Source of the DNA: a virus
Lineage: Duplodnaviria; Heunggongvirae; Uroviricota; Caudoviricetes
Reading direction: 5' to 3' (one strand)
Virus record (IMG/VR): IMGVR_UViG_3300021431_000083
DNA: 64,000 nucleotides
Shown here: positions 2,855 through 31,752 of the stretch, piece after piece
Layout of the letters: each line of letters begins with the position of its first letter
How positions within the stretch are numbered: the first letter of the stretch is position 1
Translations under genes and position numbers: made by a program
Notes under the pieces: generated by a model
Seen by the model: the letters and a program-made list of their open reading frames with translations, nothing else
Told to the model about the DNA's origin: nothing
Databases searched by the model: none

Positions 2855-3049
2855 TTAATCCTCTTCCCTTACATAGAACTTAGCAATTTCATTATCACTT
2901 TCATTCTTACAAACAATATAAGTAAAACCAGGATTCAAAATTGCACTCTCTGCCGCACTCTTTAAAGCATCTATCTTTCTGGGTGTAGACATTCGTATAG
3001 AGAGCATTTCACCAAACATCCCTCGCAGCACAAAATAAATATCTTCCAT
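2855..3049 (-). CDS. hypothetical protein (64 aa)
   Basis: Intact ORF, TAA stop. Confidence 0.45.
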   Translation of the reverse strand: MEDIYFVLRGMFGEMLSIRMSTPRKIDALKSAAESAILNPGFTYIVCKNESDNEIAKFYVREED

Positions 3050-3067
3050 TTCTTTCTTTCTCTTGGA

Positions 3068-3337
3068 CTACCAACTAACTCTATATATCTTTCTACCATT
3101 CGTAGCTAACATTTTAAATGGTTTAACTTTATAACCAAGCTGAACGAGTTTTGCAATTACTTCTTGCTCTACAATAAAATCTCCACACTCAGCTCCGCAA
3201 AAATTCATACCATATCGTCCATGCTCAATTGCTATTAAAATATATCTAAATAAAGTATCAAGCACCATTGAAACTTGTTTATCTAAATCAATTCTAACCT
3301 TAGTAGTTTGTTGATTAGCTTCTGCCGCAGTCAACAT
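3068..3337 (-). CDS. small protein, paralog 1 of a 5-member tandem family (N-term M-x-T/S-A-A-E/Q/D-A, central LGYKV, C-terminal W)
   Basis: Intact ORF. Ends TGG-TAG, where the TAG sits inside the RBS TAGGAGAG of the next cistron. Confidence 0.6.
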   Translation of the reverse strand: MLTAAEANQQTTKVRIDLDKQVSMVLDTLFRYILIAIEHGRYGMNFCGAECGDFIVEQEVIAKLVQLGYKVKPFKMLATNGRKIYRVSW

Positions 3338-7105: not shown

Positions 7106-7609
7106 TTATTCTTTAGGAGGTATAGGGCTTATAGGGCTAGGAGAAACAAAAGGAAAATTAATATCTCCACAAGTAAAATTCACATTACCATCAGAAGAAA
7201 TAAAAAACGTTGTGTTTGCAGTAGAATTAGAGCATGATATACCATCAGTATCACTAGAATAAGAATCTAGATAAAAAACATCGAGAAGAACACCTTCTCC
7301 ATTTTCTCACTCAGCAATCTGCTCTACTGATGGCTGAGGATCAAGGTTTGGATCGACTTCAATTTTATTTATTGTTCTTACAACGACGGGGATACGTTTA
7401 CCAGCTTCTGCGTACTCTCAGAGACGATTGAGCTCATTACCATCAAATCAATCTTCATCATAAAGATCTAGATATGTTTGTATTGTGTTACCACTATATA
7501 TTCGAGAACCACTAGAATCTCGAAAATTAAATGAATGTGTACCTACATTATATAAATTATTATTAGATTGACTAGGATCAAAAGCTAAATAATTTTCAGT
7601 TAGTAACAT
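7106..7609 (-). CDS. hypothetical protein, 167 aa, needs code 4 (three in-frame TGA)
   Basis: Hand translation MLLTENYLAFDPSQSNNNLYNVG ... EQIAEW(TGA)ENGEG ... PIPPKE, TAA stop. Start overlaps the upstream stop (TAATG). Confidence 0.5.
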
Positions 7610-8784
7610 TATGACGCCTCTTTCTCTTGATTGTCAATAATATATTTGTTAACCATAGTAAACCTTAATGGCACTACTTCATTTTCTGCTTCAAGTGCGG
7701 CGATACGATCTAACAAACTAGCAATAGTATGCTCAGTGTTGTTTACATTAACAGTTAGGTCACCAGCTAATCACTCATTACCTTGTCAATCTAAAGTACG
7801 GGCATTAGAATATACCGAAGGAGTACCATTACCAATAATTTCTGCATATTTATTATTAGTGTCTCTTAAATTATACTTACCACTAACATGTTGATAATTA
7901 CCATTAGCTATTGTATAATAACCTTCAGCATGACTTGCTTGTCCGTCTGCTGTAGTGCCTACACCTTCAGTATGACTACTTGGACCATTGGCAATAGTGC
8001 CTGTACCTTCAGCGTGACTATAATTACCATTGGCTGTACTTGTCTGTCAAATTATTTTATTATCAAGATCATATATTTCTTCGCCGCCACCTTCAGCGTG
8101 TGAACTTATTCCATTAGCGATAGTACCTTCACCTTCAGCATGAGAATAAATACCATTAGCTATAGTATTGCTACCTTCAGCATGTGAAAAATTACCATTG
8201 GTTATTGCATAATTACCTTCAGCATGAGAAAAAACACCATTAGCTGTTGTAGTATTACCTTCAGCATGAGAAAAACTATTGTTAGCTTTAGTGGCATTAC
8301 CTTCAGCATGAGAAATATAACCATAAGCCATAGTGCCATTACCTTCGGCATGAGAAAAAGTACCATTGGCTACAGTATTGCTACCTTCAGCATGAGAGCC
8401 GGTTCCGTTGGCTTTAGTATAATGACCTTCAGAATGTGAACCTATATTATTAACTTCAGTATAATAACCTTCAGCATGTGAGCCTGTTCCATCGGCTTTA
8501 GTATTATAACCTTCAGCATGTGAAGAAACACCATCAACTATAGTATTGAAACCTTCAGCATGTGAGTTATTACCATTAGCAGTAGCATAAGGGGTCTGTA
8601 CAGAATAATCACCTGTTCCTCAGTCATAAGGGAGAACTGCATCATCCTGTGATACTCATCTGTTTATACCATTTTCTTCTTCAGATATTTCTTTCACAAG
8701 CGGCATCTTAACATTAGCTCCTCCGCCAGAGCCACCACCATAATTTTTATTTTTAATCATAGAGAGTGTTGCTAAATCCATCAT
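7609..8784 (-). CDS. tail-fibre or receptor-binding-like protein with 13-residue SHAEG repeats, 391 aa, needs code 4
   Basis: N-term MMDLATLSMIKNKNYGGGSGGG. Repeated xSHAEGxxTxAxG units. C-terminal GDLTVN region. Several in-frame TGA, including the one at 8047 that splits the track ORF. TAA stop. Confidence 0.55.
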
Positions 8785-12942: not shown

Positions 12943-13905
12943 TTATCTTCCCATACTTTCAGGAAATTTTTTCCAACTAATTAAATTTTCAAGTTCCTCA
13001 ATCTTTTTGCGAGCTTGTATCAATTCAAGTTCAAGACTATTTGTTGTTATACCAGACTTTCCTTCAATTAATTCTTTGGTAAGACTACGGCTGATTAAAT
13101 CATAAAGAGTTTTATCCAAGAGAGAATCCATTGAAGGATCATTCTCATTAGGACAATCTTTGCGGAAATCATCAGCTATTTTAACAATGCTTTCCATTAA
13201 TTCATCTGCTTTAATTTCCGCTTGTTCTTTAGATAATCCCCATCCATTCCGTTTACACTCCAAGAGAGAATCACGAATATTGCTATTTTTAAGATAAATA
13301 CAATCTTTATAAGGTCTACCTTCGATATACCACTTAATAAAATAATTAATGCGGGCTAGGTGTGATAACTGCTTTGGGTCATATCCAAATTTTTCAATCC
13401 AGGGCATGCGGCTTGGGTATTCATGGCACAAAGCATGTCGTTTCTCACTCGCCATACCTTTCATACAAGAAACTGCGGCATAAGGATTAATCCTTGCCAA
13501 CTCTTCCGCATTCGCCCGCAACCTATTCCAAAGATCATAATACTTATTGTTTACAATAAAATAATCAGTAAATAGAATCTCAACAAAATTAATATTTGAC
13601 TTGCGGAAAATCTTAAAGTACTCCCGCACATCCTTACAATCAACATGCTCTTGGTTATCTGGCATTTCAAGAGTATGGCTAATTGGTTTGTGGTTAAGTA
13701 CAATATCTTCTAACGAAGGAATAACTAATACTTTAGAATCAATATCAGACTCCGCATCAGCCATATTGTAATTTTGACTCCCCTGTAAACAAATAACAAA
13801 CCAATCTTTGTTATAAGTAGTTATATAATGAAAAAGATGTTCATGCAAACGTTTATTAATGTCAATATCATTTAAATATGGCATTACTATCTCCTTTAAA
13901 AGCAC
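12943..13905 (-). CDS. pol-beta-superfamily nucleotidyltransferase-like protein
   Basis: G-S-x(11)-D-x-D signature: GSQNYNMADAESDIDSKV. TAA stop. Confidence 0.45.
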   Translation of the reverse strand: MLLKEIVMPYLNDIDINKRLHEHLFHYITTYNKDWFVICLQGSQNYNMADAESDIDSKVLVIPSLEDIVLNHKPISHTLEMPDNQEHVDCKDVREYFKIFRKSNINFVEILFTDYFIVNNKYYDLWNRLRANAEELARINPYAAVSCMKGMASEKRHALCHEYPSRMPWIEKFGYDPKQLSHLARINYFIKWYIEGRPYKDCIYLKNSNIRDSLLECKRNGWGLSKEQAEIKADELMESIVKIADDFRKDCPNENDPSMDSLLDKTLYDLISRSLTKELIEGKSGITTNSLELELIQARKKIEELENLISWKKFPESMGR

Positions 13906-17175: not shown

Positions 17176-17400
17176 CTTTCGTTCGCTACTTACCCCGTCG
17201 GACTTTCGCTACACACCTAGGTTTTATTAATGTGTCTGCAGGTGTATTAGACACTCCAGCAGCTTTTTACGTCTTCACTTTATTTGGACAGCTACCTTCC
17301 GCAGTAGTATGGCGACATGACTTTCGTTGAAGAGGACTGCCGCAAGCGAACATTATACACCAATGATTTTTATCTTCCTGGTTCCATCACCCTTCACAGA

Positions 17401-17470
17401 CAGCCAGATTGGACTCGAACCAATACCCTAGCCCTTGCGGGCCGATGCTGACCAATTACACCACCAGCTA
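17401..17470 (-). ncRNA. tRNA-like element: acceptor with G-U pairs, T-arm ATTGG-TTCGAGT-CCAAT, but a GCCC-GCAA-GGGC GNRA hairpin where the anticodon arm should be
   Basis: 70 nt. Not a standard tRNA. Confidence 0.3.
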
Positions 17471-20950: not shown

Positions 20951-21027
20951 TGGCACCGCATATAGGACTTGAACCTATAACAAAGTAGTTTAGAAGACTA
21001 CGGCTCTTCCTCTTGAGCTAATGCGGC
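20951..21027 (-). tRNA. tRNA-Arg(UCU)
   Basis: Acceptor GCCGCAT/ATGCGGT. D-arm GCTC-AAGAGGAA-GAGC. Anticodon arm GTAGT-CTTCTAA-ACTAC. CCA encoded. Confidence 0.65.
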
Positions 21028-21036
21028 TTATTATAT

Positions 21037-21113
21037 GGCACCCGCAGTCCGAATCGAACAGACGCCTTCTTGATTTGGAGTCAAGCTATACTTCCAATTA
21101 TACGACACGGATG
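21037..21113 (-). tRNA. tRNA-Trp(CCA). The 5' side is irregular and the acceptor needs three G-U pairs.
   Basis: Anticodon arm CTTGA-CTCCAAA-TCAAG. T-arm GTCTG-TTCGATT-CGGAC. CCA encoded. Confidence 0.5.
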
Positions 21114-21121
21114 TTTATTGT

Positions 21122-21197
21122 TTGGTACCGAGCATGGGCCACGATCCCACATCTCCGACATTAAGAGTGTCGCGCTTTGCCAATTAAGCTAACTCGG
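21122..21197 (-). tRNA. tRNA-Lys(CUU)
   Basis: Acceptor ACCGAGT/GCTCGGT. Anticodon arm CGACA-CTCTTAA-TGTCG. Unusual T-loop ATCGTGG. Confidence 0.55.
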
Positions 21198-21200
21198 TAT

Positions 21201-21464
21201 TGGTTGCCTGGACGGGATTTGAACCCGCAACTAATGGATTACATACCACTACTATTTTCATAGCCATTTCGTTTGTGGTCTGGACTTTATCTTCACCATA
21301 TTTTAAAACTTAGGCGGCTCGTGTAAAGTCTCTACACACGGTTTCCCTTGCTCGGTATTACCATTTTACAGGTTTCACCGACTTAGCGAGCTTATTCACT
21401 TATAAGTTTCCTTATAAGGCTTCCAATCGAAAGTCCACTACGCTTCCGTTGCGTCACCAGGCAA
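21201..21464 (-). tRNA. split tRNA gene, probably tRNA-Lys(UUU). 5' exon about 21432-21464, 3' exon about 21201-21241, separated by an intron-like insertion of about 190 nt in the anticodon loop.
   Basis: 5' half: TGCCTGG-TG-ACGC-AACGGAA-GCGT-A-GTGGA-CTTT. 3' half: TAA-TCCAT-TAGTT-GCGGG-TTCAAAT-CCCGT-CCAGGCA-A-CCA. Acceptor and anticodon stems pair only across the insertion. Confidence 0.5.
21242..21431 (-). other. putative group I intron in a tRNA anticodon loop
   Basis: The 5' exon ends in U and the insertion ends in G before the 3' exon. It contains AAGATAAAGTCC, close to the group I P7/S element AAGATATAGTCC, plus GGGAAACC and GACTTTA elements. Confidence 0.45.
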
Positions 21465-21950
21465 TATCTTATCAAAATCATAATCTTTAAAAAATTTTAT
21501 CCCTGAAGTTTGTCCATTTTTAGTTGGTTCAATCCTTAAAGAAATAGTTTGACAACTACCAATATCTTTAATTGGTACTAGAGCAATTATATCTCTATTT
21601 TGATTATAAAATACAAAATAATCTACATCTTTTTCATAAGTATCTAAAGACTTATTTGTAGTATGATTTTTAGAACTTCTACAATAGCATCTAATACTTC
21701 CATTAGCTTCTTCATTTGCGGTTTTTACTTGGATACGATTTAGTTTACCACCAAATTCAGCAATCATATCATAACGTTCATTGTCTCCTCAAGGAAGAGC
21801 TACTGGAATATTACGACGTTGAAATTCAAATAACGCTTTAGCTTCAGAAATATTACCTTTAGTTTTACTATTCATAATTACCACACTTTCTCCACACTCA
21901 CTAATAACCGACCAAACAGGTGGTGTGGATTCACTTTTCAATAAGCTCAT
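21438..21950 (-). CDS. PD-(D/E)XK nuclease-like protein, 170 aa, needs code 4 (one TGA). Its 3' end overlaps the tRNA 5' exon.
   Basis: Motif ALPW(TGA)GDNERYDMIAEFGGKLNRIQVK (D ... E-x-K). Lies between tRNA-Asn and the split tRNA. Confidence 0.45.
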
Positions 21951-21982
21951 GACTTCTTATCTATTTTGGTCGGATATTTAAC

Positions 21983-22058
21983 ATGGCTCCCAGTACTGGA
22001 TTCGAACCAGTATAACGACATTAACAGTGTCGCGTCCTGCCGTTGAACGAACCGGGAA
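21983..22058 (-). tRNA. tRNA-Asn(GUU)
   Basis: Acceptor TCCCGGT/ACTGGGA. D-arm GTTC-AACGGCA-GGAC. Anticodon arm CGACA-CTGTTAA-TGTCG. T-arm ACTGG-TTCGAAT-CCAGT. CCA encoded. Confidence 0.65.
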
Positions 22059-22098
22059 TAAAACTAAAGTCTTTCTGGACTTTATTAAACAAGCATAT

Positions 22099-22183
22099 AG
22101 CTACCCTGTGTCGCGGGGGTCGGATTCGAACCGACGTTGATGCCGACTTATGAGGACGGTGAGTAACCACTACTCCACCCCGC
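22099..22183 (-). tRNA. tRNA-Met or Ile2 (anticodon CAU)
   Basis: Acceptor CGCGGGG/CCCCGCG. Anticodon loop CTCATAA. T-arm GTCGG-TTCGAAT-CCGAC. Slightly long variable region. Confidence 0.5.
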
Positions 22184-22194
22184 GTCACGAGGTG

Positions 22195-22407
22195 CTAATC
22201 ATCATCATAATTAAAATAATCTTCTGGATGCAATAAATAATCTATATATTCACTTGCTTCTTCATATGTATCAAAACTACCTATAACTCGAAATCTTGGA
22301 GAATATATGTCATGAATACTGCGGACAGTATAACAGCCACAATAAAAACCATTAATTTGTTCATCACAAACAATATATTCTTTAAGCATGTTATTTCCTT
22401 TTAACAT
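22195..22407 (-). CDS. hypothetical protein (70 aa)
   Basis: Intact ORF with a consensus promoter upstream at about 22405-22448. Confidence 0.45.
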   Translation of the reverse strand: MLKGNNMLKEYIVCDEQINGFYCGCYTVRSIHDIYSPRFRVIGSFDTYEEASEYIDYLLHPEDYFNYDDD

Positions 22408-22409
22408 TT

Positions 22410-22445
22410 ATATTATATCATATTAGCTTAACAATAGTCAAGTTA
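22410..22445 (-). promoter_or_regulatory. consensus promoter module (TTGACT, 18-nt spacer, TATAAT)
   Basis: Read on the minus strand. Confidence 0.5.
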
Positions 22446-22449
22446 ATTT

Positions 22450-22812
22450 TTATTCATTATAAGTATAAGTTACTTTTTCAGGAATCCATAAATATGGCCA
22501 TCCAATAAAATCGTCTAAAGTAACAACAATAAAGAAATCTTTTCCAACTTCTTTACACAATTGCGGTAAAATTACACTATGCATGTAATGATAATGTTCA
22601 CTTTTTTCTTCTTCACTCATATTAAAAAAATTACTGTCTATATCATATTCAAAATAATCTTCGTCATAGTATTTTCCGCCATGCCATGCTTTAAAACGCA
22701 TATATGGAATTTTAACAGTAACTAACATAATTCTCCTTTGGTCGCGGAGGGTGCTAAATATATTGCCATTTATATCCATAAGCAGTTTTTCTTTTTCCTC
22801 TACACACTCCAC
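22450..22812 (-). CDS. hypothetical protein (120 aa); start uncertain because it overlaps the next gene
   Basis: Intact ORF. Confidence 0.4.
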   Translation of the reverse strand: MECVEEKEKLLMDINGNIFSTLRDQRRIMLVTVKIPYMRFKAWHGGKYYDEDYFEYDIDSNFFNMSEEEKSEHYHYMHSVILPQLCKEVGKDFFIVVTLDDFIGWPYLWIPEKVTYTYNE

Positions 22813-23365
22813 TTATATGAGAACTACTATCAGGTTTATTAATAAATCTCGCAGCTTCTCTCGTAGATTTAAAAGTTTTTATAATCTCATTTGTTTTTAT
22901 ATCAATCATCGCAACAGCTTTCTGCTGCTGTTCTTGAACAGAAGGAATCAGAACATTAAATTCTTTACAAGCAGTTCTAACAGTATTTTTAGAACAATTA
23001 AAATAATCTTGGACCTTTTTTGAGTTTTTTAATTCTTTCATTTTATTTGCTATAGCTTCATAATCATAATAGCGTCTACTATCTCCACCTAAAGTAGCGT
23101 TATATCCATTATTATAAGTATCTAATTTTTGAATCCAATATTGTTCACGTTCATTTAGATCTTTTTCATCACATTCTTCTAATTTATTAATAATGAAATT
23201 ATCTACTCCATATTTATTTAAAGCTCTACAAATCGGTCTAGTTTGATTTTGTTTATATTTAGCATCATGTTGATGCATCTGCCATCTGCGATGAATAGAT
23301 TGACAAGTTTGTCCCACATACTGTTTTTTATTTATTTTATTCGTTATAACATAAATAAAACCCAT
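22754..23365 (-). CDS. GIY-YIG homing endonuclease (I-TevI-like)
   Basis: N-term GFIYVITNKINKKQYVGQT (GIY ... YVG). Basic C-terminal DNA-binding region. Sits directly beside the tRNA cluster. Confidence 0.6.
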   Translation of the reverse strand: MGFIYVITNKINKKQYVGQTCQSIHRRWQMHQHDAKYKQNQTRPICRALNKYGVDNFIINKLEECDEKDLNEREQYWIQKLDTYNNGYNATLGGDSRRYYDYEAIANKMKELKNSKKVQDYFNCSKNTVRTACKEFNVLIPSVQEQQQKAVAMIDIKTNEIIKTFKSTREAARFINKPDSSSHISGVCRGKRKTAYGYKWQYI

Positions 23366-23423
23366 CTCTTCTCCAAATTCTTATTATAACAAAAGTATCA
23401 TCACTTTTGGAGGTAGTGTCTAT

Positions 23424-23499
23424 GGTATCAGCAGCGGGCTACGATCCCGCGTTTCTACCTTGAAAGGGTAGTGTCCTAGTCCAACTAGACGATGCCGAC
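23424..23499 (-). tRNA. tRNA-Glu(UUC)
   Basis: Acceptor GTCGGCA/TGCTGAT with G-U pairs. Anticodon arm CTACC-CTTTCAA-GGTAG. T-arm GCGGG-ATCGTAG-CCCGC. CCA encoded. Confidence 0.55.
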
Positions 23500-23502
23500 A
23501 TT

Positions 23503-23575
23503 GGTCGCTATGGAAGGTAACGCTCCTCCGTCTTGGCGTTATCAGCACCCTGCTCTACTTTTGAGCTACATAGCG
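23503..23575 (-). tRNA. tRNA-Ile(GAU)
   Basis: Acceptor CGCTATG/CATAGCG. D-arm GCTC-AAAAGTA-GAGC. Anticodon loop CTGATAA. Unusual T-loop AGCGTTA. Confidence 0.5.
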
Positions 23576-23576
23576 T

Positions 23577-23651
23577 TGGCTTCCTCTTCAGGACTCGAAC
23601 CTAAACTAAGGGCACCAAAAACCCTTGTGCTACCAATTACACCAAGAGGAA
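23577..23651 (-). tRNA. tRNA-Gln(UUG)
   Basis: Acceptor TTCCTCT/AGAGGAA. Anticodon arm AGGGT-TTTTGGT-GCCCT. T-arm TTAGG-TTCGAGT-CCTGA. Confidence 0.55.
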
Positions 23652-23708
23652 ATATCAGATATTAGTATTAACCATTACGAACCACGTGGAGGTTTCTGAT
23701 TCTCGTAA

Positions 23709-23794
23709 CTACGGATGGTGGGACTCGAACCCACAAACCTTGCGGCAACGGATTTTGAGTCCGTCGTGTTTGCCAATTTCACCACACCCGCACT
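23709..23794 (-). tRNA. tRNA-Leu(CAA), type II
   Basis: Acceptor GCGGGTG/CATCCGT. Anticodon arm ACGGA-CTCAAAA-TCCGT. Long variable arm. T-arm GTGGG-TTCGAGT-CCCAC. Confidence 0.55.
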
Positions 23795-23988
23795 TAAGAT
23801 TCAATTAATTTAAATTGAGTTGTATAATAAGTACCGCAATGGTCACATTGACCACTACCATACTTTAATTCAAAAGAAGCACCACACTTAGGACAAGTTA
23901 TAGGATATACTTCTACAATTTCACATTTAAGAGCATATGTTTTACCACCAAAAGAAATTTTACTTATATATCCATCAACTTGTTCCAT
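23794..23988 (-). CDS. small zinc-ribbon protein (CPKCG ... CDHCG). Start moved to the internal Met (MEQVDGY) to avoid the tRNA.
   Basis: The track ORF 23794..24045 runs into tRNA-Met. Confidence 0.4.
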   Translation of the reverse strand: MEQVDGYISKISFGGKTYALKCEIVEVYPITCPKCGASFELKYGSGQCDHCGTYYTTQFKLIES

Positions 23989-24011
23989 ATGTAATCCTTT
24001 ATATAGTGAGA

Positions 24012-24086
24012 TGGTGCGGGAGACAGGAGTTGAACCTGCTTCCAATCGATTATGAGTCGAGTGCTCTACCGTTGAGCTTCTCCCGC
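24012..24086 (-). tRNA. tRNA-Met (CAU), second copy; possibly the initiator or elongator partner of the first
   Basis: Acceptor GCGGGAG/CTCCCGC. D-arm GCTC-AACGGTA-GAGC. Anticodon loop CTCATAA. T-arm CAGG-TTCAACT-CCTG. Confidence 0.55.
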
Positions 24087-24087
24087 A

Positions 24088-24175
24088 TGGTCCCGCGTCT
24101 AGGTAACGCTCCTAGCCAGCATTAAAGCAACAGTTTTACAGACTGCCCCGTGTCTTTAACGGAATACCGCGGGAT
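24088..24175 (-). tRNA. tRNA-Tyr(GUA), type II
   Basis: Anticodon arm GCAGT-CTGTAAA-ACTGT. 14-nt variable arm. T-arm CTAGG-AGCGTTA-CCTAG. CCA encoded. Confidence 0.45.
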
Positions 24176-24176
24176 A

Positions 24177-24251
24177 TGGCCAGGCGTACGGGAATCGAAC
24201 CCGTGATAATGGTTAGACAGACCATTGTGATAACCGCTTCACTAACGCCCG
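24177..24251 (-). tRNA. tRNA-Asp(GUC)
   Basis: Acceptor CGGGCGT/ACGCCTG. D-arm GTGA-AGCGGTTA-TCAC. Anticodon arm ATGGT-CTGTCTA-ACCAT. T-arm ACGGG-TTCGATT-CCCGT. Confidence 0.65.
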
Positions 24252-24253
24252 AC

Positions 24254-24329
24254 TGGAGCTGGCGACAGGAATCGAACCCGCAACCTAGTGATTACAAATC
24301 ACTTGCGCTACCTATTGCGCCACGCCAGC
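24254..24329 (-). tRNA. tRNA-Thr(UGU)
   Basis: Acceptor GCTGGCG/CGCCAGC. D-arm GCGC-AATAGGTA-GCGC. Anticodon arm AGTGA-TTTGTAA-TCACT. T-arm GCGGG-TTCGATT-CCTGT. Confidence 0.65.
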
Positions 24330-25619
24330 AAAATAAAAGCGTTGGGTAAGGTGTAACGCGACCACCGCATGTAAAATTATTTTATGTCTAATCGACATGC
24401 TCGCAAAGACAGTAGGATTGCTCCTTTTGGAAGATATATCTATTATGGCTGATATGACTTTAAATATATATAAATATATCCTCCAAAAGAAGATACTTTC
24501 ATAGGAACCACCCTCATCGTAGAGAAAGTATAAACTACAGAAGGTTCTAACGCTCTTAACCTACAAGCGATCTTTACTTTACGCATAGACTTGCGGCAAG
24601 ATCATTACCCTATCCTGCATGGGATGTACTTGATTTCGTTCAAACACATAAAGACGGAAATCATTTTGGTTCAGGTGATTTCAAAACCAGAAAACCACAA
24701 TTTTATTTTATAGTCTAATTGGTTCATACTAGACTGGCATTAAGTACGCCTAAGAAAACATTTTATAAATGTTCTCTAAGGCATAAACTGTTTATCAGTT
24801 ATTTCAGCCCTTTAAGCTACACTAGAGAGTATGTTAGGCTACTCTCTTTTTATATACCCTGCCTAACCAGAGACGCCGTTTTATTTAATGACGCGAACGG
24901 ACTAGGAACTTGGTAATCACCTTACGGTATCCGCCATTTTCCATACCACTTAATTTCTTAAGGGCTATTACGTCAATTCCTTCAAACAGAATAGTTGAAG
25001 ATATACATGCCAGCCTTCGCTGTACCGCATCTATTTACTGGATATTCGATCACGCAGGAGATAAGGCTGAGTATGTCGGAGCGACCGTCATACTTCTTAC
25101 CCCAGCCGTTAAGGCCATCTCTACTGTAGGAGTGATTACCTACAACTTTCACACGTCATTCAGCATTAATATATTCTCCTAAATATTCATTGATATAAGG
25201 AGCTGCTTTGTGCTACTCGAACCTTGCTCTTGTCTTATTCTTTCTGTTACCAGAAAGTCAACAGCTCAATCTCCTTATTGGTATTTCCAGCTTTCTCTTA
25301 TTCAGCACCACCTGTTAATAAGTGTTCTGGATTCTTCCCCACTGGGGCGTCTATTGCGGAGACGACAATTTGCAAGTATCTTTCCTTAGCAAATAGACTA
25401 AGCGCATTCTTCATTTTGTTGGTAGTTCCTACCTTCTAAAGCAAACCTCACGATTCACCTTAAAGCCACACAGCCAAGTATCCCAGACTGTATAAACTCA
25501 TTGAGAAGAACCCTCAGCACGTTGACACCGCTCTGCACTGAGTTGCACCTAAATCTTCAACTATTCTGTTTTCAAAGTTCTTAGGTTAAGAAACCTAATA
25601 TTAACTCTCTCAACCTTAT

Positions 25620-25962: not shown

Positions 25963-25971
25963 TAGTTACAT

Positions 25972-26544
25972 TCATTCAAATTCAAATTTACATTGTATAT
26001 AATACCATTTAATATCCTCAATAATGGCATCTATATTTACAGGACAACAATCATGAGCATCAACCGCAACGTTATAAGATTGCCATCCTCTATCCATAAA
26101 CTCATATCTATTTTGAGAATGAGTATGACCATGAAGATTCCAAACACGAGCTCTTAAAGGCTTATCATAATCATCATAATTTGCGGTTAACGTAGGATAA
26201 TGCGATAAAAGAAAATGCCATTTCTTATATTTAAGCATTCCAGAATATCCAAAACCTTCAACTAAACTAGGTAAATCCCAATACAATTGTTTTCTAACAT
26301 CACTATCATGATTGCCCCAAAAGACATGTAGCTTGCCATTGAGCCGCCGCAAACAATTTAAACCATGTTCATTATCACCAAGCATCTGATCACCCAAGAG
26401 AAAGAGATCATCATCAGGCCGCACAATACTATTAAATCTTTCAATGATTGCTTCATCATGCTTTTGGATATTAGAAAATCCTCGCGGCTTATAGATAAAA
26501 TCTCTGTCATGACCGAAGTGTAAATCTGAACAAACATATAACAT
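25972..26544 (-). CDS. calcineurin-like metallophosphoesterase
   Basis: Motifs DLHFGHD, GDQMLGD, GNHD, GHTH. Confidence 0.6.
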   Translation of the reverse strand: MLYVCSDLHFGHDRDFIYKPRGFSNIQKHDEAIIERFNSIVRPDDDLFLLGDQMLGDNEHGLNCLRRLNGKLHVFWGNHDSDVRKQLYWDLPSLVEGFGYSGMLKYKKWHFLLSHYPTLTANYDDYDKPLRARVWNLHGHTHSQNRYEFMDRGWQSYNVAVDAHDCCPVNIDAIIEDIKWYYIQCKFEFE

Positions 26545-27039
26545 TTAATCTACCCTCCAGACATAATCAAAACCTTCGCTATCCTCAACAGGCTGATATG
26601 CTTCAATCATGCGGTTCATAGCATCAGCAGGGACGACTCTATCACGTTTCTTATTACGATAAACAGCATCCAACATTGATGTATTCATCTGAACCGCAAT
26701 AAATTTACAATCTAAATCTTTAAGGTGATTGCGGCATTTGCGACGAGATTTCTTGGTCAGATGTGTTGCATCAAGAATTACATCACTACCATTTTTGATA
26801 GCTTCACGAGCACGCTCATAAAAAATATCAAAAACAACACCATTAAGAGATTGATTACTGGCATCACCGCAAAGCTCTTCACGAATATCATCAGAAGAGA
26901 TATAGACTCGACTGCGCCAAGGATGATCCATCAATACGTTCTTACAAAAATAACTCTTTCCGCTGCCAGGCACGCCGCACATAATGTATACAACAGGCTT
27001 ACGCAGTTGACGACGAATACCCTCATCACATTGAGTCAT
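26545..27039 (-). CDS. P-loop kinase (polynucleotide or nucleotide kinase-like)
   Basis: Walker A GVPGSGKS. Adjacent to a phosphoesterase and a ligase. Confidence 0.55.
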   Translation of the reverse strand: MTQCDEGIRRQLRKPVVYIMCGVPGSGKSYFCKNVLMDHPWRSRVYISSDDIREELCGDASNQSLNGVVFDIFYERAREAIKNGSDVILDATHLTKKSRRKCRNHLKDLDCKFIAVQMNTSMLDAVYRNKKRDRVVPADAMNRMIEAYQPVEDSEGFDYVWRVD

Positions 27040-27061
27040 ATATCTCTCCTTTCTTTCAACA

Positions 27062-27098
27062 ATAATATTATAACATAATTATATTATAGCTGTCAACT
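27062..27098 (-). promoter_or_regulatory. consensus promoter module (approximate)
   Basis: aatattataacataattatattatagctgtcaa. Confidence 0.4.
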
Positions 27099-28362
27099 AA
27101 GAGTTCATAACTTGCGTTAATTCGATATAATCAATCATATCTCCGTACTTAACACCACGGAAATAATCAACCTTCTGGCCTAAGAATTTAGCACGTACTG
27201 CTCCTTGATACCGCTTAGGCACAACTTTATCAACAGCAATCATAAAAGTCTTGCGATCATCAGTATAATCTACGAAATCACGAGTAAGATTATACCACTT
27301 CATAACACGTTCATCGAACATTTGTACGTACTTATAAACATTATCAGCCTTTTCCTTAGCTTGCGGTTGATATGCAACAGGAATCTTTGAATAAAAATCA
27401 TCCCAACGACCTTCACGAATAGCTGCAATTATAGCGTTGGGAGAAACCATCTTACAAAGAGCATGGTGGAGCATAACATAATCATTATACTTGAGCTTAT
27501 ACTTCTGTCCGTCTACATCAATAACATATCCCTCACCCTCATTAGCCTTACGACCATCATTAAGGGCATCCTGATAAGCTTCTTCAAAAGTCATATCAAA
27601 AATTTTAACATGCGGCACATCATACTTTTCTGCGACTTCTACAACATCCTTATAAGGTAGTTCTACACCATCCTCTACTCGTCGCATTCCAAGTAAATGC
27701 AAACCGAACATTTGTTCGTTATATTGTACAACATGAACATCATCAGGGAAAATACCTTCAAAAATGAAAGTATAATCTCGATAATCCTTTACCATCTGTA
27801 CAGCATTATTATGACTAAACATCCAATGATAATAATTAGCAAGACGATAAGACATATTGGTATCAAGAGCTTGTGACCCAGACATTACCAAATCATTCTT
27901 ATACCAACGAGCACTACAAAGAGAACCGTCAAGCTTATCAGTAATTTCTACTCGGGCCGCATTCTCTATCTTCTCTTGGACTATAGGAAGCTGAGTCTCT
28001 TCTCGCTCATTAATATTAAAGAATTTGCGGAATGGAGTAAGAATAAGACAATCATTAAGTACATCAATTACAACTGAACGACACTCACGATAAAAACCAT
28101 CATAAGCATCCCAGTCAATATCAAGATCATTATACTTAATAAGTAGCATACCCATGCTTTCATTGAGAAGCAAGGGTTCAATCATCTTAGAATAATAATG
28201 ACGCTTAGGATGACCATGATTTCCGAGAGTCCATACCCAATAGGAAAGACAATTAGTAAAGGAATCATCGCGGCCATACTGCCACAAAGCATCCTTGCCG
28301 CACACCTTAACAAATTCATTCTTTACTTCAGTGAAAAAATCTAAAGGTTGATTCCAAGACAT
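27097..28362 (-). CDS. ATP-dependent RNA ligase (Rnl1-like)
   Basis: Motif I KLDGS (T4 Rnl1 has KEDGS). Motif IV EGYVI. Motif V KLK. Confidence 0.55.
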   Translation of the reverse strand: MSWNQPLDFFTEVKNEFVKVCGKDALWQYGRDDSFTNCLSYWVWTLGNHGHPKRHYYSKMIEPLLLNESMGMLLIKYNDLDIDWDAYDGFYRECRSVVIDVLNDCLILTPFRKFFNINEREETQLPIVQEKIENAARVEITDKLDGSLCSARWYKNDLVMSGSQALDTNMSYRLANYYHWMFSHNNAVQMVKDYRDYTFIFEGIFPDDVHVVQYNEQMFGLHLLGMRRVEDGVELPYKDVVEVAEKYDVPHVKIFDMTFEEAYQDALNDGRKANEGEGYVIDVDGQKYKLKYNDYVMLHHALCKMVSPNAIIAAIREGRWDDFYSKIPVAYQPQAKEKADNVYKYVQMFDERVMKWYNLTRDFVDYTDDRKTFMIAVDKVVPKRYQGAVRAKFLGQKVDYFRGVKYGDMIDYIELTQVMNS

Positions 28363-28371
28363 ATTTACCTC

Positions 28372-28868
28372 TTATTCATTAAGTTTCTTTAAACCGTCTG
28401 AAGCATCATACCCTGATGAATCAGCTAATTTAACTTTTCCTTGATAATGATATTGCGGCTTCTGCGGACGTGTATTATATCTCCACCATTCTGAACCATC
28501 ATATTCCGCACGAGACAGCCATGATCCATCATTAAAACAAATGACTAAATCTACTGCAACTTCTTCACTACCATATCCACAATAGTAATTAGTATCTTTC
28601 GCGGCTTCTTTGAATTGTTCAGTGCTAATATAGAAATCATGTCCACCAATCCAAGAAACATCCTCCCAAGTTTTATTATGATAAAATAAAACATGTTCGG
28701 TCTCTTCAAGAAGATTAATCTCGCTCACAGTTTCTCCAATCAGTCTTATATTTTTCTTTGCGGCTATACTTATTTTTTCCATGTGCACCATGTCCGCACA
28801 TCCAACCATTATAGTGCGGTTTTTGTGCATTCCAAATAATTTTAGGATCAATAGTAATAGACCCATGA
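28372..28868 (-). CDS. hypothetical protein. The real start is probably internal: the N-terminal LFLCYNIFI of the track ORF is a translated promoter.
   Basis: The track ORF is 28372..28941. Confidence 0.4.
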
Positions 28869-28904
28869 TACTTCTTTTTGGACATACTATCTCCCCTTTC
28901 CTTA

Positions 28905-28942
28905 TAAATATATTATAACATAAAAATAAGGTAGCTGACAAG
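28905..28942 (-). promoter_or_regulatory. consensus promoter module (TTGTCA, 18-nt spacer, TATAAT)
   Basis: Read on the minus strand. Confidence 0.45.
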
Positions 28943-28967
28943 AGCTACCTTATAACAAGTATAATAA

Positions 28968-29297
28968 TTATTTAAGTGATTTTCCGCACATAGGACAAAA
29001 CTGAATTTCAGTTTTACCTACACCATCAGGAGTACCAAACCGCAGATATCCCTTTGGATCAACATAAATAAATATATCTTTATCATAATAAAGATCAACG
29101 CCATCTTTATTGCCGCAATAAGGACAATCTAACTCTTCTAAAACTGGAATGTCCCAACAAATATCTCGCTTTAATACACTAGGTTTTGGTGTCCATTTAT
29201 AAAGATTTTCTACATATACAGGAGTTTCTTTACGTTCCAAAGTAAGACGGTCCATTACATCCACCATATCTTTCATGTCCTTTCTCGTCGTATACAT
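28968..29297 (-). CDS. zinc-ribbon protein (CPYCGN ... CPMCG)
   Basis: Intact ORF. Confidence 0.45.
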   Translation of the reverse strand: MYTTRKDMKDMVDVMDRLTLERKETPVYVENLYKWTPKPSVLKRDICWDIPVLEELDCPYCGNKDGVDLYYDKDIFIYVDPKGYLRFGTPDGVGKTEIQFCPMCGKSLK

Positions 29298-29417
29298 GCC
29301 ATCGCATCCAGCTACGTTTATTTAATTTACACCATTTTTTAGCAGTATCCAAATCAAAAAACCATGACACATAATGATAACAAAGATCATCATCATATAC
29401 TACTTTATAAATATTCA

Positions 29418-30344
29418 TTACATCAACCCTAGAAACTTGCGGCCTTCTGCTTTAATCAAGCCATTAAGTGCGGCAAAGTCGATTTGAGGATTCTTAGCAC
29501 GTTTACAAAAATCTACAATATTCTCCTCAAGAGTATCCTTCCAAAGTAAATTAAGAAACATACCAATAAATTTGCCATTACCAGGAACATACTCTTCACC
29601 GCAAGCCAGGGCAGTTTTAGCCTTAGCTTTCTCAAGCTCAGATTGAGTCAGATAGCGATTAATGAAATCTTGTTCAACTTCGCCAGCCTGAACAATTCTC
29701 TTTACTCTTGGAGTGTCAGGTCTAAAATCTTCCCGTACATATTTTGCTACAGCATAGCGTCCATAGCAATTTACATAATTGTCTCTACGAATCACAACAC
29801 CCTCTCCAAGAGTATCAGTTCCTTCAAGAAGAAAAGTATTCTCATTCGCAACCTTGATAATATCTTCAAGTGTAGGATTAGTTAACGTGGCAAGAAGTTT
29901 TACACGATAATGAAGTAGATCATACATAATAAGTGCAGCTTCAAGCTCATCCCAGGTTAGATATTTTTCAGTTTCACGATTGTAAATATCAAAAATCCAA
30001 AGTTTATTTGCAGCTTGTTCAGTATACTTTTTTATTGCACCAACTTTTCCTACTGACCATTCTCCATAAATAATCCAATTAGGATTAGCTTGACATGCTT
30101 TAACAAGCAATTGAGCTTCTAATCTTTTAGATTCCATCCAAGCGGCAAAACCAGCATTGTCATTCTCAATAGAAATTTCACGTTTGCGGCTACCATAACG
30201 CATACGACCATCTTCATCTGCCCATACACAACTATTACAACCATCAAGCTTGGCCGTGATTTTTACTTCACCATTTAAAATATTATCAACTTCTGTTTTT
30301 CCTAAACGTTCAACGTGAAGGTAAGGTCTAAAACAATTGGTCAT
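29418..30344 (-). CDS. ATP-dependent polynucleotide ligase (second nucleotidyltransferase-family ligase)
   Basis: Motif I KLDGC. Motif IV EGVVIRR. 308 aa. Confidence 0.5.
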   Translation of the reverse strand: MTNCFRPYLHVERLGKTEVDNILNGEVKITAKLDGCNSCVWADEDGRMRYGSRKREISIENDNAGFAAWMESKRLEAQLLVKACQANPNWIIYGEWSVGKVGAIKKYTEQAANKLWIFDIYNRETEKYLTWDELEAALIMYDLLHYRVKLLATLTNPTLEDIIKVANENTFLLEGTDTLGEGVVIRRDNYVNCYGRYAVAKYVREDFRPDTPRVKRIVQAGEVEQDFINRYLTQSELEKAKAKTALACGEEYVPGNGKFIGMFLNLLWKDTLEENIVDFCKRAKNPQIDFAALNGLIKAEGRKFLGLM

Positions 30345-30540
30345 TGCAACTCCTTAGAAGAGATCGTCATAGGCGTCCATCATTTCAACATACTGCTCTT
30401 CATAATCCCTATCATCAATCCAATCATTTTCATTTATGTCCCAGGGTTCTGCGGTGGCCATATTTGAAAACAAATCAGATTCAAAATCATAGATATGATC
30501 ATCGCCGCATACGTAATCTTCACAATCCATTACATTCTCC

Positions 30541-30876
30541 TTATGCTACTCGCTCACAATAACGATTACAAAAAGTATCAGGGCCAAAATCAAATTCATC
30601 CCATGCCGTACCAGGAATATTAGGGTCAATCTTCCATACTTCAAACCTAATAAAATCATCCATAACTTGCTCATATACATCTGCGGGATCAAGTGGCAAT
30701 TCTCTTTCAGTCTCCTGAATAATTAAATCTGCATATCTGTCGATACTTTGCCGCAAAGAGAGCTTTTTAGCTTTATCTACAGCTTCGTTATGAGTAACAT
30801 CATAAATAATTTCGTATTCATAATCTGGGACAACATCAATCCCACAATAGCCGCAAATTATATAATCATTCTTTTC
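30541..30876 (-). CDS. hypothetical Cys-containing protein. Start at the internal Met (MEKNDYIICGYCG).
   Basis: The N-terminal part of the track ORF is promoter-derived. Confidence 0.4.
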   Translation of the reverse strand, partial: EKNDYIICGYCGIDVVPDYEYEIIYDVTHNEAVDKAKKLSLRQSIDRYADLIIQETERELPLDPADVYEQVMDDFIRFEVWKIDPNIPGTAWDEFDFGPDTFCNRYCERVA

Positions 30877-30894
30877 CATACTTCTCCTTCCTCT

Positions 30895-30935
30895 TATAAA
30901 TATATTATAGCATAAAAATAATGCGACTGGCAAGA
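30895..30935 (-). promoter_or_regulatory. consensus promoter module (approximate)
   Basis: aatatattatagcataaaaataatgcgactggcaa. Confidence 0.45.
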
Positions 30936-31011
30936 AAAATCTTACTACAGCCGCACAGGATATTATTTTACATATATGTAATATTATAGATTTTATTACG
31001 AATAAGTAATA

Positions 31012-31752
31012 TTACCAAGAGAGAGTATGTTTAGGAATTAGTTGTTTAGGATGATCTGGATGATTCTTGTTATAAAGCCGCACACTTGCTTCATAATCTA
31101 TCTTGCCAGTCTTGCGGTCATATACTGCATCTTCCTTCTTTTGAGTAATAAGCATGTGCCGCACATAAGGTTCTTCAAGAAACTTAAAGCTTGGCTTTTC
31201 AAGTTTACCGAGTAAATTCATTACTCTCTTGGAAGAAGCAAGCTGATAATTAAGCATATGGACATTCACATTAAAATGCTGTTCACTATCAAGACGTTCA
31301 CAGTGAAGGTGGCCATGAACATTTAAAGTTCCTGCGGGACAAGGCCACACAGGTTCATGAGAAATTATAATTCTAGGATGAATATAAACTGGCATGGTAT
31401 AAACTTTATCAAATACCCTTTGAAATCTATCGAGTTCAGATCGAGCATCATGATTTCCCATTACAAAATGACATTCAATGCCATATTCCCATCTTAACTT
31501 ACGGATTACCCACAGATGATCAATATTACCAAAATCACCTAAATGAAATAAGATTGCTCCATAGTGTTTTTCTGCCCAAGAAAAAAGTAAATTATCAATT
31601 GTATCATCATGCTCTTTAATAGTTTTGAACTGTGTACGTTCAAAAAAAATTACACCACGTTGTTCTCCTTGTTTATTTTGATTTATATGATTATAATGAG
31701 TATCGGATATAAACCAAGTATTAGAAATATCATTAATCATACTTACCACCAA
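31012..31752 (-). CDS. calcineurin-like metallophosphoesterase (second copy)
   Basis: Motifs DTHYNH, GDFGN, GNHD, GHLH. Confidence 0.55.
   Translation of the reverse strand: MVVSMINDISNTWFISDTHYNHINQNKQGEQRGVIFFERTQFKTIKEHDDTIDNLLFSWAEKHYGAILFHLGDFGNIDHLWVIRKLRWEYGIECHFVMGNHDARSELDRFQRVFDKVYTMPVYIHPRIIISHEPVWPCPAGTLNVHGHLHCERLDSEQHFNVNVHMLNYQLASSKRVMNLLGKLEKPSFKFLEEPYVRHMLITQKKEDAVYDRKTGKIDYEASVRLYNKNHPDHPKQLIPKHTLSW

Follow-up and report, generated by a model that had tools for sequence, protein, structure and literature searches.

In a 64,000-nucleotide (nt) stretch of the Caudoviricetes record IMGVR_UViG_3300021431_000083, referred to here as the window, a tRNA-Lys(UUU) gene is interrupted between anticodon-loop positions 35 and 36 by what appears to be a self-splicing group I intron of 188 nt, and a free-standing homing-endonuclease gene overlaps its 5' end. 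We consider it probable that intron and nuclease spread together amongst related phages by collaborative (trans) homing. The identities assigned to the intron and the tRNA are very likely correct; collaborative homing, taken by itself, is only a little better than an even call. The tRNA array that holds the locus (20951-24329) and all elements placed within it below are on the minus strand.

The 5' exon (21463..21430; TGCCTGG-TG-ACGC-AACGGAA-GCGT-A-GTGGA-CTTT) contains the 5' strand of the acceptor stem, the D arm, the 5' strand of the anticodon stem and loop nt 32-35 (CUUU), the last U of which is the 5' splice site. The 3' exon (21241..21201; TAA-TCCAT-TAGTT-GCGGG-TTCAAAT-CCCGT-CCAGGCA-A-CCA) supplies loop nt 36-38 (UAA), the 3' strand of the anticodon stem, the variable loop, the T arm, the 3' acceptor strand, the discriminator A and an encoded CCA. 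ARAGORN located the split tRNA at c[21201,21463] when introns were allowed, whilst the default program did not report this gene in the 64-kb window. With the exons ligated in silico, ARAGORN returned a tRNA-Lys(ttt) of 75 nt including the encoded CCA, with the anticodon loop CUUUUAA. Only these boundaries give this 7-nt loop, which fixes the anticodon as UUU and the insertion at 35/36. The predicted ligated junction is GTGGACTTT|TAATCCAT, spanned by GTAGTGGACTTTTAATCCATTAG, and the acceptor and T-arm sequences specific to the split tRNA of the window are TGCCTGG... and ...GCGGGTTCAAATCCCGTCCAGGCA.

An earlier sequence-only reading had described both tRNA halves correctly, with coordinates 1-2 nt off and an insert of about 190 rather than 188 nt. 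Its interpretation held up in all main elements. Its spliced loop CTTTTAA and anticodon UUU (Lys) agree with ARAGORN on the ligated exons and with the uninterrupted relatives described below. The UGU anticodon that it had offered as an alternative, through a shift of one nucleotide, was rejected: the intron would then end in U, and a 7-nt loop together with U at position -1 and a terminal G permits only CUUU|...|UAA.

To collect relatives of the locus, the intron core, the nuclease and the adjacent tRNA-Lys(CUU) served as queries against IMG/VR and metagenomes. Across the intron, both the acceptor and the anticodon stem form without a mismatch, and both covary from one relative to another. The acceptor stems of the window (TGCCTGG/CCAGGCA), contig L003 (TCGCTCG/CGGGCGA) and contig L007 (TCTGCCG/CGGCAGA) all differ, and each is complementary. 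This pairing and covariation argue against a fold as two unrelated partial tRNAs, which the sequence-only reading had named as an outcome that would contradict it. In the metagenome contig L036 the same array slot, between tRNA-Asn and an identical tRNA-Lys(CUU), is occupied by an uninterrupted tRNA-Lys(UUU) whose D arm is homologous and whose loop reads CTTTTAA; the tRNA model scores it at 60 bits. The anticodon arm predicted after ligation, GTAGTGGACTTTTAATCCAT, is identical in uninterrupted tRNA-Lys(UUU) genes of 7 other IMG/VR phage contigs. The split gene is the sole tRNA with a UUU anticodon in the array, and AAA exceeds AAG about threefold amongst Lys codons in the ORFs (open reading frames) of the window (617 vs 194). 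We take the split gene to be a functional phage tRNA-Lys(UUU), real and under selection.

The intervening sequence (21429..21242; CGATTGG...GGTATG) follows a U and ends in G (G188, at 21242), bounds that can be read directly from the DNA and had been noted as such. P1 is formed by exon CUUU plus C1 of the intron with intron G6-G10 (GGAAG), placing a U.G pair at the splice site (U-1.G7). P10 pairs intron nt 2-6 (GAUUG) with the first five nt of the 3' exon (UAAUC), giving 5 base pairs (bp). P2 (21418..21399) carries a GAAA loop, P3 joins 21391..21387 to 21321..21317, and P4/P5/P6 (21381..21336) ends in a GAAA loop on P6. In P7 (21330..21325 with 21288..21283) the GACUUU/AAAGUC pairs are intact and one position covaries. 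P8 (21314..21296) contains a canonical 11-nt tetraloop receptor (CCUAAG...UAUGG), and P9/P9b (21278..21246) has a GAAA loop on P9b. The P7-like element, the second quoted element and the GACTTTA reported from the sequence-only reading are all present: AAGATAAAGTCC is the 3' strand of P7, GACTTTA its 5' strand and GGGAAACC is L6. No ORF was found within the 188 nt. With its three GAAA loops and canonical receptor, this ribozyme is among the smallest natural group I introns.

Covariance searches recovered the group I core. With a 901-nt region searched by itself, the Rfam group I model RF00028, which the sequence-only reading had suggested as a check, gave a full-model match at 21441..21265 (46.3 bits, E=1.8e-10), below its gathering score of 50. 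The match was lost in Rfam scans of the whole window or of several loci, also at relaxed E-values, because the filters tighten as more sequence is searched. A second covariance model, R1, drew on 12 tRNA group I introns of phage contigs and 4 of bacteria (PMC13011429, Table S5), 16 in all, and left out the window sequence and its two near-identical relatives. Run with filters off on the 64-kb window, R1 matched 21397..21240 with 145.9 bits (E=3e-35); the next best match scored 14.5 bits, and chance would not produce such a gap.

Conservation of the helices was assessed by annotating P1-P9b by hand and projecting the annotation onto a 20-sequence MAFFT alignment. Cells were paired in 87.4% of cases, against 30-40% when partners were slid by 1-3 columns. 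Changes on both sides were seen in 31 of the 50 pairs, none of 500 shuffles reached the observed score, and the covariation score was 0.495 compared with 0.06-0.09 in the slid controls. Compensatory changes were clearest in P3 (5/5 pairs), P9b (4/4) and P2 (7/8). The minimum-energy fold of the intron by itself recovered P2, P4, P5, P9 and P9b (z=-2.66). Taken together, the Rfam match, the covariation and the independent model bear out a tRNA split in its anticodon loop, and we read the insert as a compact group I intron of the IC3 type at 35/36. Upon transcription of the tRNA array the intron would fold into P1-P9 and bind guanosine in P7. It would then remove itself by two standard transesterifications, at the U.G pair of P1 and then after the terminal G, releasing the array's only lysine tRNA with a UUU anticodon. 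Self-splicing, including its dependence on guanosine, is the behaviour we would expect from such a core.

Directly upstream of the 5' exon lies a free-standing PD-(D/E)XK homing-endonuclease gene of 145 amino acids (21875..21438; MNSKTKGN...). Its product, with an in-frame TGA read through, matched the Pfam family PF11645 (PDDEXK_5) over profile positions 1-137 of 138 (105.8 bits, E=2.4e-30, cut-off 26.1) and PDB entry 2OST, I-Ssp6803I, with E=1.5e-4. It thus almost certainly belongs to the I-Ssp6803I family. Residues E11, P28, D36, Q49 and K51 were invariant in 10 homologues, and the catalytic motif is D...Q-x-K, as in I-Ssp6803I, in place of the D...E-x-K read earlier. All 12 IMG/VR homologues begin MNSK(T/S)KG, indicating that the real start is the ATG at 21875. 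The ORF given by the sequence-only reading, 21438..21950 with one TGA, is therefore real and matches the whole profile, with its start moved from 21950 to the conserved position. At the DNA level the gene is 92% identical to those of L007 and L033 (96% in protein), with no frameshift or true stop.

The nuclease ORF ends ...FDKIL-PGDATEA-TAG (stop at 21440..21438), and its last 26 nt are also the first 26 nt of the tRNA. The overlap with the 5' exon had been recognised correctly, as had the placing of a nuclease of the tRNA-fMet-intron family beside the intron and not inside it, which PF11645, 2OST and the position of the ORF upstream of the exon all support. The acceptor strand that pairs with the 3' exon thus lies at the 3' end of the nuclease ORF. 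Between tRNA-Asn and the nuclease ATG is a 108-nt leader (21876..21983), which is part of the nuclease cassette: it is 96% identical in L007 and L033 and missing in the nuclease-less L003 and L036. No significant fold was found in this leader (z=0.22), and a structured RNA was rejected on that score. A relic of the 5' half of an intron was also rejected, local alignments to the L002 and window introns resembling shuffles (z=1.3 and -0.3). Nor was there any tRNA half between tRNA-Asn and the ATG that could serve as a second 5' exon, which, with the pairing acceptor strand at the 3' end of the ORF, discounts a larger intron enclosing the nuclease.

The in-frame TGA is codon 29 of the nuclease (21791..21789), read as Trp and the only Trp codon of the gene. 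Homologues have TGA at this codon in L007, L033 and L002/L008, TGG in L009 and L010, and Phe or Tyr codons in more distant members. With TGA read through, ORFs covered 0.84 of the window in place of 0.64, and ORFs of 2917, 2857, 1245 and 1130 amino acids emerged, with 39, 17, 21 and 16 TGA codons, respectively. The giant TGA-rich ORFs lie at 37875-63551 and 7106-8784 (minus strand), and ORFs between ~8.8 and 36 kb are mostly without TGA. Across 27 ORFs there were 106 in-frame TGA and 110 TGG codons, and the stops were TAA in 22 and TAG in 5, with TGA in none. The phage is, by this codon usage, TGA-recoded, with TGA as a sense codon. That TGA means Trp (code 4) is likely, given one nuclease column (W in L009 and L010) and the depletion of TGG. 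Because the whole phage uses TGA as a sense codon, the TGA of the nuclease gene is no defect. We rejected it as a sign of a pseudogene, TGA being sense across the window and kept at the same codon in three homologues. A parallel was seen in the TAG-recoded relative L011, where the invariant catalytic Gln of Q-x-K is encoded by TAG (1645-1647, codon 49), as the Trp of the window nuclease is by TGA; a second TAG follows six codons later.

The locus was found in four states. Neither element is present in L036 and L034. L003 has the intron without the nuclease, and tRNA-Asn lies 3 nt upstream. Intron and upstream nuclease occur together in the window, in the identical contig L037 and in L007/L033. 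In more distant phages the nuclease lies inside the intron, in the P6 loop in L002/L008 and near P1/P2 in L017, where the ORF runs through P3-P6. The array neighbours are nearly invariant: the upstream tRNA-Asn(GUU) (21984..22057) is 98.6-100% identical in L007 and L003, and the downstream tRNA-Lys(CUU) (21123..21198), 2 nt past the split tRNA, is 100% identical in L003, L007, L033, L034 and L036. In a comparison of the window, L007 and L003, the flanking tRNA-Asn, tRNA-Lys(CUU) and tRNA-Trp were 98.6-100% identical and the intron core ~97%, with the split-tRNA exons at 70-88%. This identity pattern is a local mosaic of the kind that repeated gene conversion leaves. In L007 the 3' end of the nuclease is fused to nt 5 of an L002-like tRNA (TCTG|CCGTAGCTTAG vs GAAT|CCGTAGCTTAG), and the 3' acceptor strand is altered to match the fusion (CGGATTC to CGGCAGA).

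Nucleases of the same clade also stand directly downstream of an intact tRNA-Lys(UUU), in L009-L013 and in L038, a contig of a rumen Lachnospiraceae metagenome-assembled genome. L038 was the best of five distant loci returned by a scan of bacterial genomes for the nuclease clade; a host cannot be assigned from this single contig. Linkage of the nuclease to tRNA-Lys(UUU) recurs in ~15 loci. The tRNA alleles beside free-standing homologues include the AAACTTTTAATTT type. The base of their anticodon stem is AAA...TTT in four of five distinct alleles and GCA...TGC in L009, and none of the five has the GGA...TCC or TGA...TCA of intron-bearing and naive alleles. Such a difference would fit immunity of the target site.

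Several of these loci have further features. In L009 (~1180-1830), L010 (~1320-2100) and L011 (~1330-1960) the cassette of intact tRNA-Lys(UUU) and free-standing nuclease interrupts a second tRNA, lying between a 5' fragment of it and its 3' half; the acceptor strands of the disrupted tRNA are complementary, and L009 keeps a P7-like remnant, AAGATATAAAGTCC. The cassette appears to be an insertion that does not splice and supplies a substitute for the tRNA it breaks. L017 contains a tmRNA-like (transfer-messenger RNA) match at 2883-3286 (38.1 bits, E=4.8e-12, gathering score 47), with an anticodon-CUA tRNA nearby (1160-1232).

Nuclease homologues were also found in cultured phages. Two of them, annotated as hypothetical proteins, lie within tRNA arrays: in Pectobacterium phage My1 (L043, JX195166.1 30085-30486) the homologue My1_056 overlaps the 5' end of tRNA-Ile(GAU) by 7 nt, and in the Kuttervirus Salmonella phage SM5 (L045) the homologue starts 24 nt after a tRNA that is annotated as tRNA-Met in the record and called tRNA-Asn(GTT) by ARAGORN. 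In the Schiekvirus Enterococcus phage EFP01 (L044, KY549443.1 ~105240-105780) the homologue EFP01_109 is inside a split tRNA-Asp(GUC), which ARAGORN with introns allowed placed at 832-1367 with a 463-nt insert at 35/36, following a U and ending in G. This insert is nearly all ORF, leaving no room for a ribozyme core, and no group I Rfam match was obtained there in a multi-locus scan that also missed the known introns of L003 and L007. A megablast search of 25 kb of the window against 50,697 phage records gave no match.

Under the collaborative homing that we favour, the nuclease would act in mixed infections on related phages whose tRNA-Lys(UUU) allele is uninterrupted, cutting that allele close to where the intron inserts. 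The resident gene would be protected, its intron splitting the nuclease site. Repair would then copy the intron and the nuclease gene, 34 nt away, together (co-conversion). The presence/absence polymorphism is of both elements: both in the window, L037, L007 and L033, the intron by itself in L003 and neither in L036 and L034. The putative cleavage target is suggested, indirectly, by the linkage to tRNA-Lys(UUU) in ~15 loci.

The same intron could instead be a genuine self-splicing element beside an independent nuclease that spreads by intronless homing, as T4 SegB does. L003, with its intron and no nuclease, fits such independence, as do the homologues beside other tRNAs without an intron in My1 (tRNA-Ile) and SM5, those next to an intact tRNA-Lys(UUU) in L009-L013 and L038, and a second endonuclease gene, of the GIY-YIG family, in the same array (22754-23365). 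We nevertheless judge this account unlikely. In L002/L008 the nearest homologue from another type of locus (77% identical) is found within a homologous intron at the same tRNA-Lys(UUU) site, the more distant homologue of L017 is likewise inside a homologous intron, and the tRNA-Lys(UUU) genes of the window type and the L007 type, the recovered nuclease-bearing relatives at the locus, also have the intron. In addition, the characterised family member I-Ssp6803I is cited in a review as cutting its tRNA gene at the anticodon region (PMC3984707, reference B105).

A decaying remnant is quite improbable. On that account the nuclease was once intronic, was displaced by illegitimate recombination and is now inactive or silent, and the intron persists since its precise loss is difficult. 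The varied position of the nuclease in close relatives (P6 loop, P1/P2 region, upstream or downstream), the illegitimate-looking fusion of its 3' end to the tRNA acceptor stem and the lack of a recognisable promoter of its own would all agree with displacement. Decay itself is contradicted by an ORF that is intact over the full Pfam profile with every invariant catalytic residue kept, and by its close identity, without frameshift or true stop, to L007/L033. Moreover, the fused acceptor stems have been repaired by compensatory changes in two different tRNA backgrounds, so the nuclease-tRNA arrangement appears to be maintained under selection. That the locus is a pseudogene without function, whether a tRNA and ribozyme that are both dead or a pair of unrelated tRNA fragments, might be suspected from the silence of default ARAGORN and whole-window Rfam scans and the RF00028 score under threshold, and is hardly credible given core helices that are all intact and covarying, the 145.9 bits of the independent model, stems that pair perfectly over the intron and covary among relatives, a gene that is the array's only tRNA-Lys(UUU) in an AAA-rich genome, and the identical sequence of the independent metagenome contig L037.

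Returning to collaborative homing, the output of the nuclease is probably kept low or late by two features, the TGA codon and the stop codon inside the tRNA. The TGA would be readable as Trp only once the code switch of the phage operates, postponing nuclease synthesis. Cleavage by RNase P at the tRNA 5' end would leave a nuclease message without a stop, because the stop is 23-25 nt within the tRNA. In turn, translation that runs on into the 5' exon would block folding of P1 and of the cloverleaf, and each transcript would yield nuclease or tRNA, not both. These ideas on coupled expression are speculative. The same kind of ORF-tRNA overlap is found in cultured phage My1, by 7 nt. More broadly, the related phages may preserve a natural series in which nuclease and ribozyme join up, with the nuclease beside an uninterrupted tRNA-Lys(UUU), beside an intron-split gene, and inside two different intron loops. 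The whole of this picture, the joining series together with a nuclease output doubly gated by TGA and RNase P, is tentative, and we would sooner doubt than accept it in full.

Several observations weigh against our interpretation of the locus. For the intron, the RF00028 score is under the gathering threshold, P5 has only ~3 bp, and P10 is unconserved in the relatives L007 and L002. For the recoding, no tRNA(UCA) suppressor was found among the 14 tRNAs of the 64-kb window, which is part of the genome only. For nuclease expression, a promoter and terminator scan of the region found 10 sites where 14.3 were expected from shuffled controls, with one strong match (22441..22412) and no dedicated nuclease promoter, and the RNase P and non-stop idea is speculation from coordinates. 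For homing, the cut made by a free-standing endonuclease is often at a distance from the gene that encodes it. The target may thus be another site, such as the Asn-Lys junction, and the intron a bystander. The intron also persists unaided, as L003 has it and no nuclease.

Next to the tRNA array, directly upstream, is a full-length ROOL RNA (24991-25566, minus strand, 334.5 bits). ROOL RNA also adjoins the tRNA arrays of L002 (9153-9754) and Enterococcus phage EFP01 (L044 1830-2202). The GIY-YIG homing-endonuclease gene (22754-23365; PHROG 314 and 7168, E=7e-28) is unrelated to the first nuclease and lies between tRNA-Met and tRNA-Glu of the array, recalling T4 SegB. A tRNA missed by ARAGORN was found at 23505-23575 (Rfam 48.6 bits), with the loop CUGAUAA, an anticodon read by eye as GAU (Ile) and an unusual T arm. 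Outside the array, a tRNA-like gene at 17399-17470 (minus strand, Rfam tRNA 31.2 bits) combines acceptor, D and T arms of normal form with an anticodon arm made of a 4-5 bp stem and, in place of the usual 7-nt loop, a very short one (..GGCCCGCAAGGGCU..), for which ARAGORN gave a 2-nt 'anticodon', ca.

An RNA-repair-like gene cluster lies by the tRNA array (25966-31740 and 12943-13884, minus strand). It includes RNA ligases at 27097-28362 (T4 RnlA-like) and 29418-30344, phosphoesterases at 25966-26544 and 31012-31740, and a nucleotidyltransferase. With a tRNA-Lys(UUU) gene of the phage's own close by, the cluster resembles a set of tools for tRNA repair. Host anticodon nucleases classically attack tRNA-Lys.

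In 2014 a review noted that, numerous as phage tRNA genes are, every phage intron known at the time lay in a protein-coding gene (PMC3984707), and subsequent papers on recoded, intron-rich gut phages, crAss-like ones among them, describe introns in protein genes only. Our literature search, of incomplete coverage and so yielding only absence of evidence, found no published phage tRNA group I intron. The layout of an intron with a nearby homing-nuclease gene is known for phage protein genes and for bacterial tRNAs, and no description from a phage tRNA was found. In a pattern scan of IMG/VR, group I introns turned up in many phage tRNAs, including Leu(UAA), Tyr(GUA), CAU-anticodon and another Lys(UUU) tRNA (L019-L032). 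From this one scan, such introns may be common in phage tRNAs and unannotated. One case, in a tRNA-Leu(UAA), lies at 1444-1735 of L001 (LR756501.1, a 735-kb phage); a 3.2-kb Rfam search at E<=0.01 did not pick it up, and the tRNA-Leu intron of a 735-kb metagenomic phage was the only match in a blastn search with our locus. Counts of tRNA genes in large and recoded phages are probably too low, because default ARAGORN and Rfam (at the gathering score or on whole contigs) miss such genes. The locus offers a compact and tractable test of the collaborative-homing route to mobile introns, with donor, naive and intermediate alleles already in sequence data. It could also test whether recoding of a stop codon times the expression of a selfish nuclease.

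The recoding of the nuclease gene can be compared with that in the Agate phages, TGA-recoded phages of ~127 kb from cattle gut, in which an intron endonuclease family prefers TGA for Trp; this preference was proposed to delay endonuclease synthesis until late infection (Borges et al., bioRxiv 10.1101/2021.08.26.457843). The window phage resembles them in its TGA recoding, its cattle- and rumen-related sequences and an endonuclease Trp encoded by TGA. The difference is that the Agate intron is in an early protein gene and that tRNA genes are unmentioned in that report (bioRxiv 10.1101/2021.08.26.457843).

Amongst bacterial tRNAs, a 2026 survey lists 333 anticodon-loop group I introns of 184-894 nt, of which those at 35/36 are unusual, with 28 cases (Nakagawa et al. 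2026, PMC13011429). Its table includes Lys(UUU) introns at 34/35, in Actinomycetota, and PF11645 nucleases are described inside tRNA-fMet and tRNA-Arg(UCU) introns (PMC13011429). The window intron shares P1-P9, the GAAA loops on P2 and P9 and the P8 receptor with bacterial IC3 introns such as those of Azoarcus tRNA-Ile, cyanobacterial tRNA-Leu(UAA) and tRNA-Asn/Asp at 35/36. It also shares the preceding U, the final G and the anticodon-loop location, and at 188 nt it is within the size range of the survey (PMC13011429). The most similar of the bacterial introns listed is one of Bacillota_A tRNA-Asn at 35/36, classed as IC3 (PMC13011429). Unlike these introns, it resides in a phage genome, interrupts tRNA-Lys(UUU) at 35/36, is near the lower size limit and has its nuclease gene outside.

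I-Ssp6803I of the Synechocystis tRNA-fMet intron (PDB 2OST) is likewise a D..QxK enzyme of the PF11645 family tied to an anticodon-loop group I intron. In contrast to it, the window nuclease lies outside and upstream of the intron with its 3' end over the 5' exon, is associated with a Lys and not an fMet tRNA and has a recoded TGA; across the 100 aligned residues identity is only ~25%. T4 SegB (PMC2330249) provides the precedent of a free-standing homing endonuclease in a phage tRNA array with mosaic inheritance of the neighbouring tRNA genes. It differs in its GIY-YIG fold and in the absence of an intron in T4, and in the window the ORF overlaps a tRNA.

The closest precedents for collaborative or trans homing are F-CphI with the psbA intron of cyanophage S-PM2 and mobE with the I-TevIII intron of T4 nrdB (PMC3984707, PMC2790892). 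As in those systems, relatives with and without each component exist, and the arrangement has been proposed as a route to composite mobile introns. The window locus departs from them in having a tRNA and not a protein gene as target and a nuclease of another family, and cleavage at the insertion site is here a prediction. Since L002 and L017 already hold the same nuclease inside the intron, several stages of joining would be visible at once in this group of phages.

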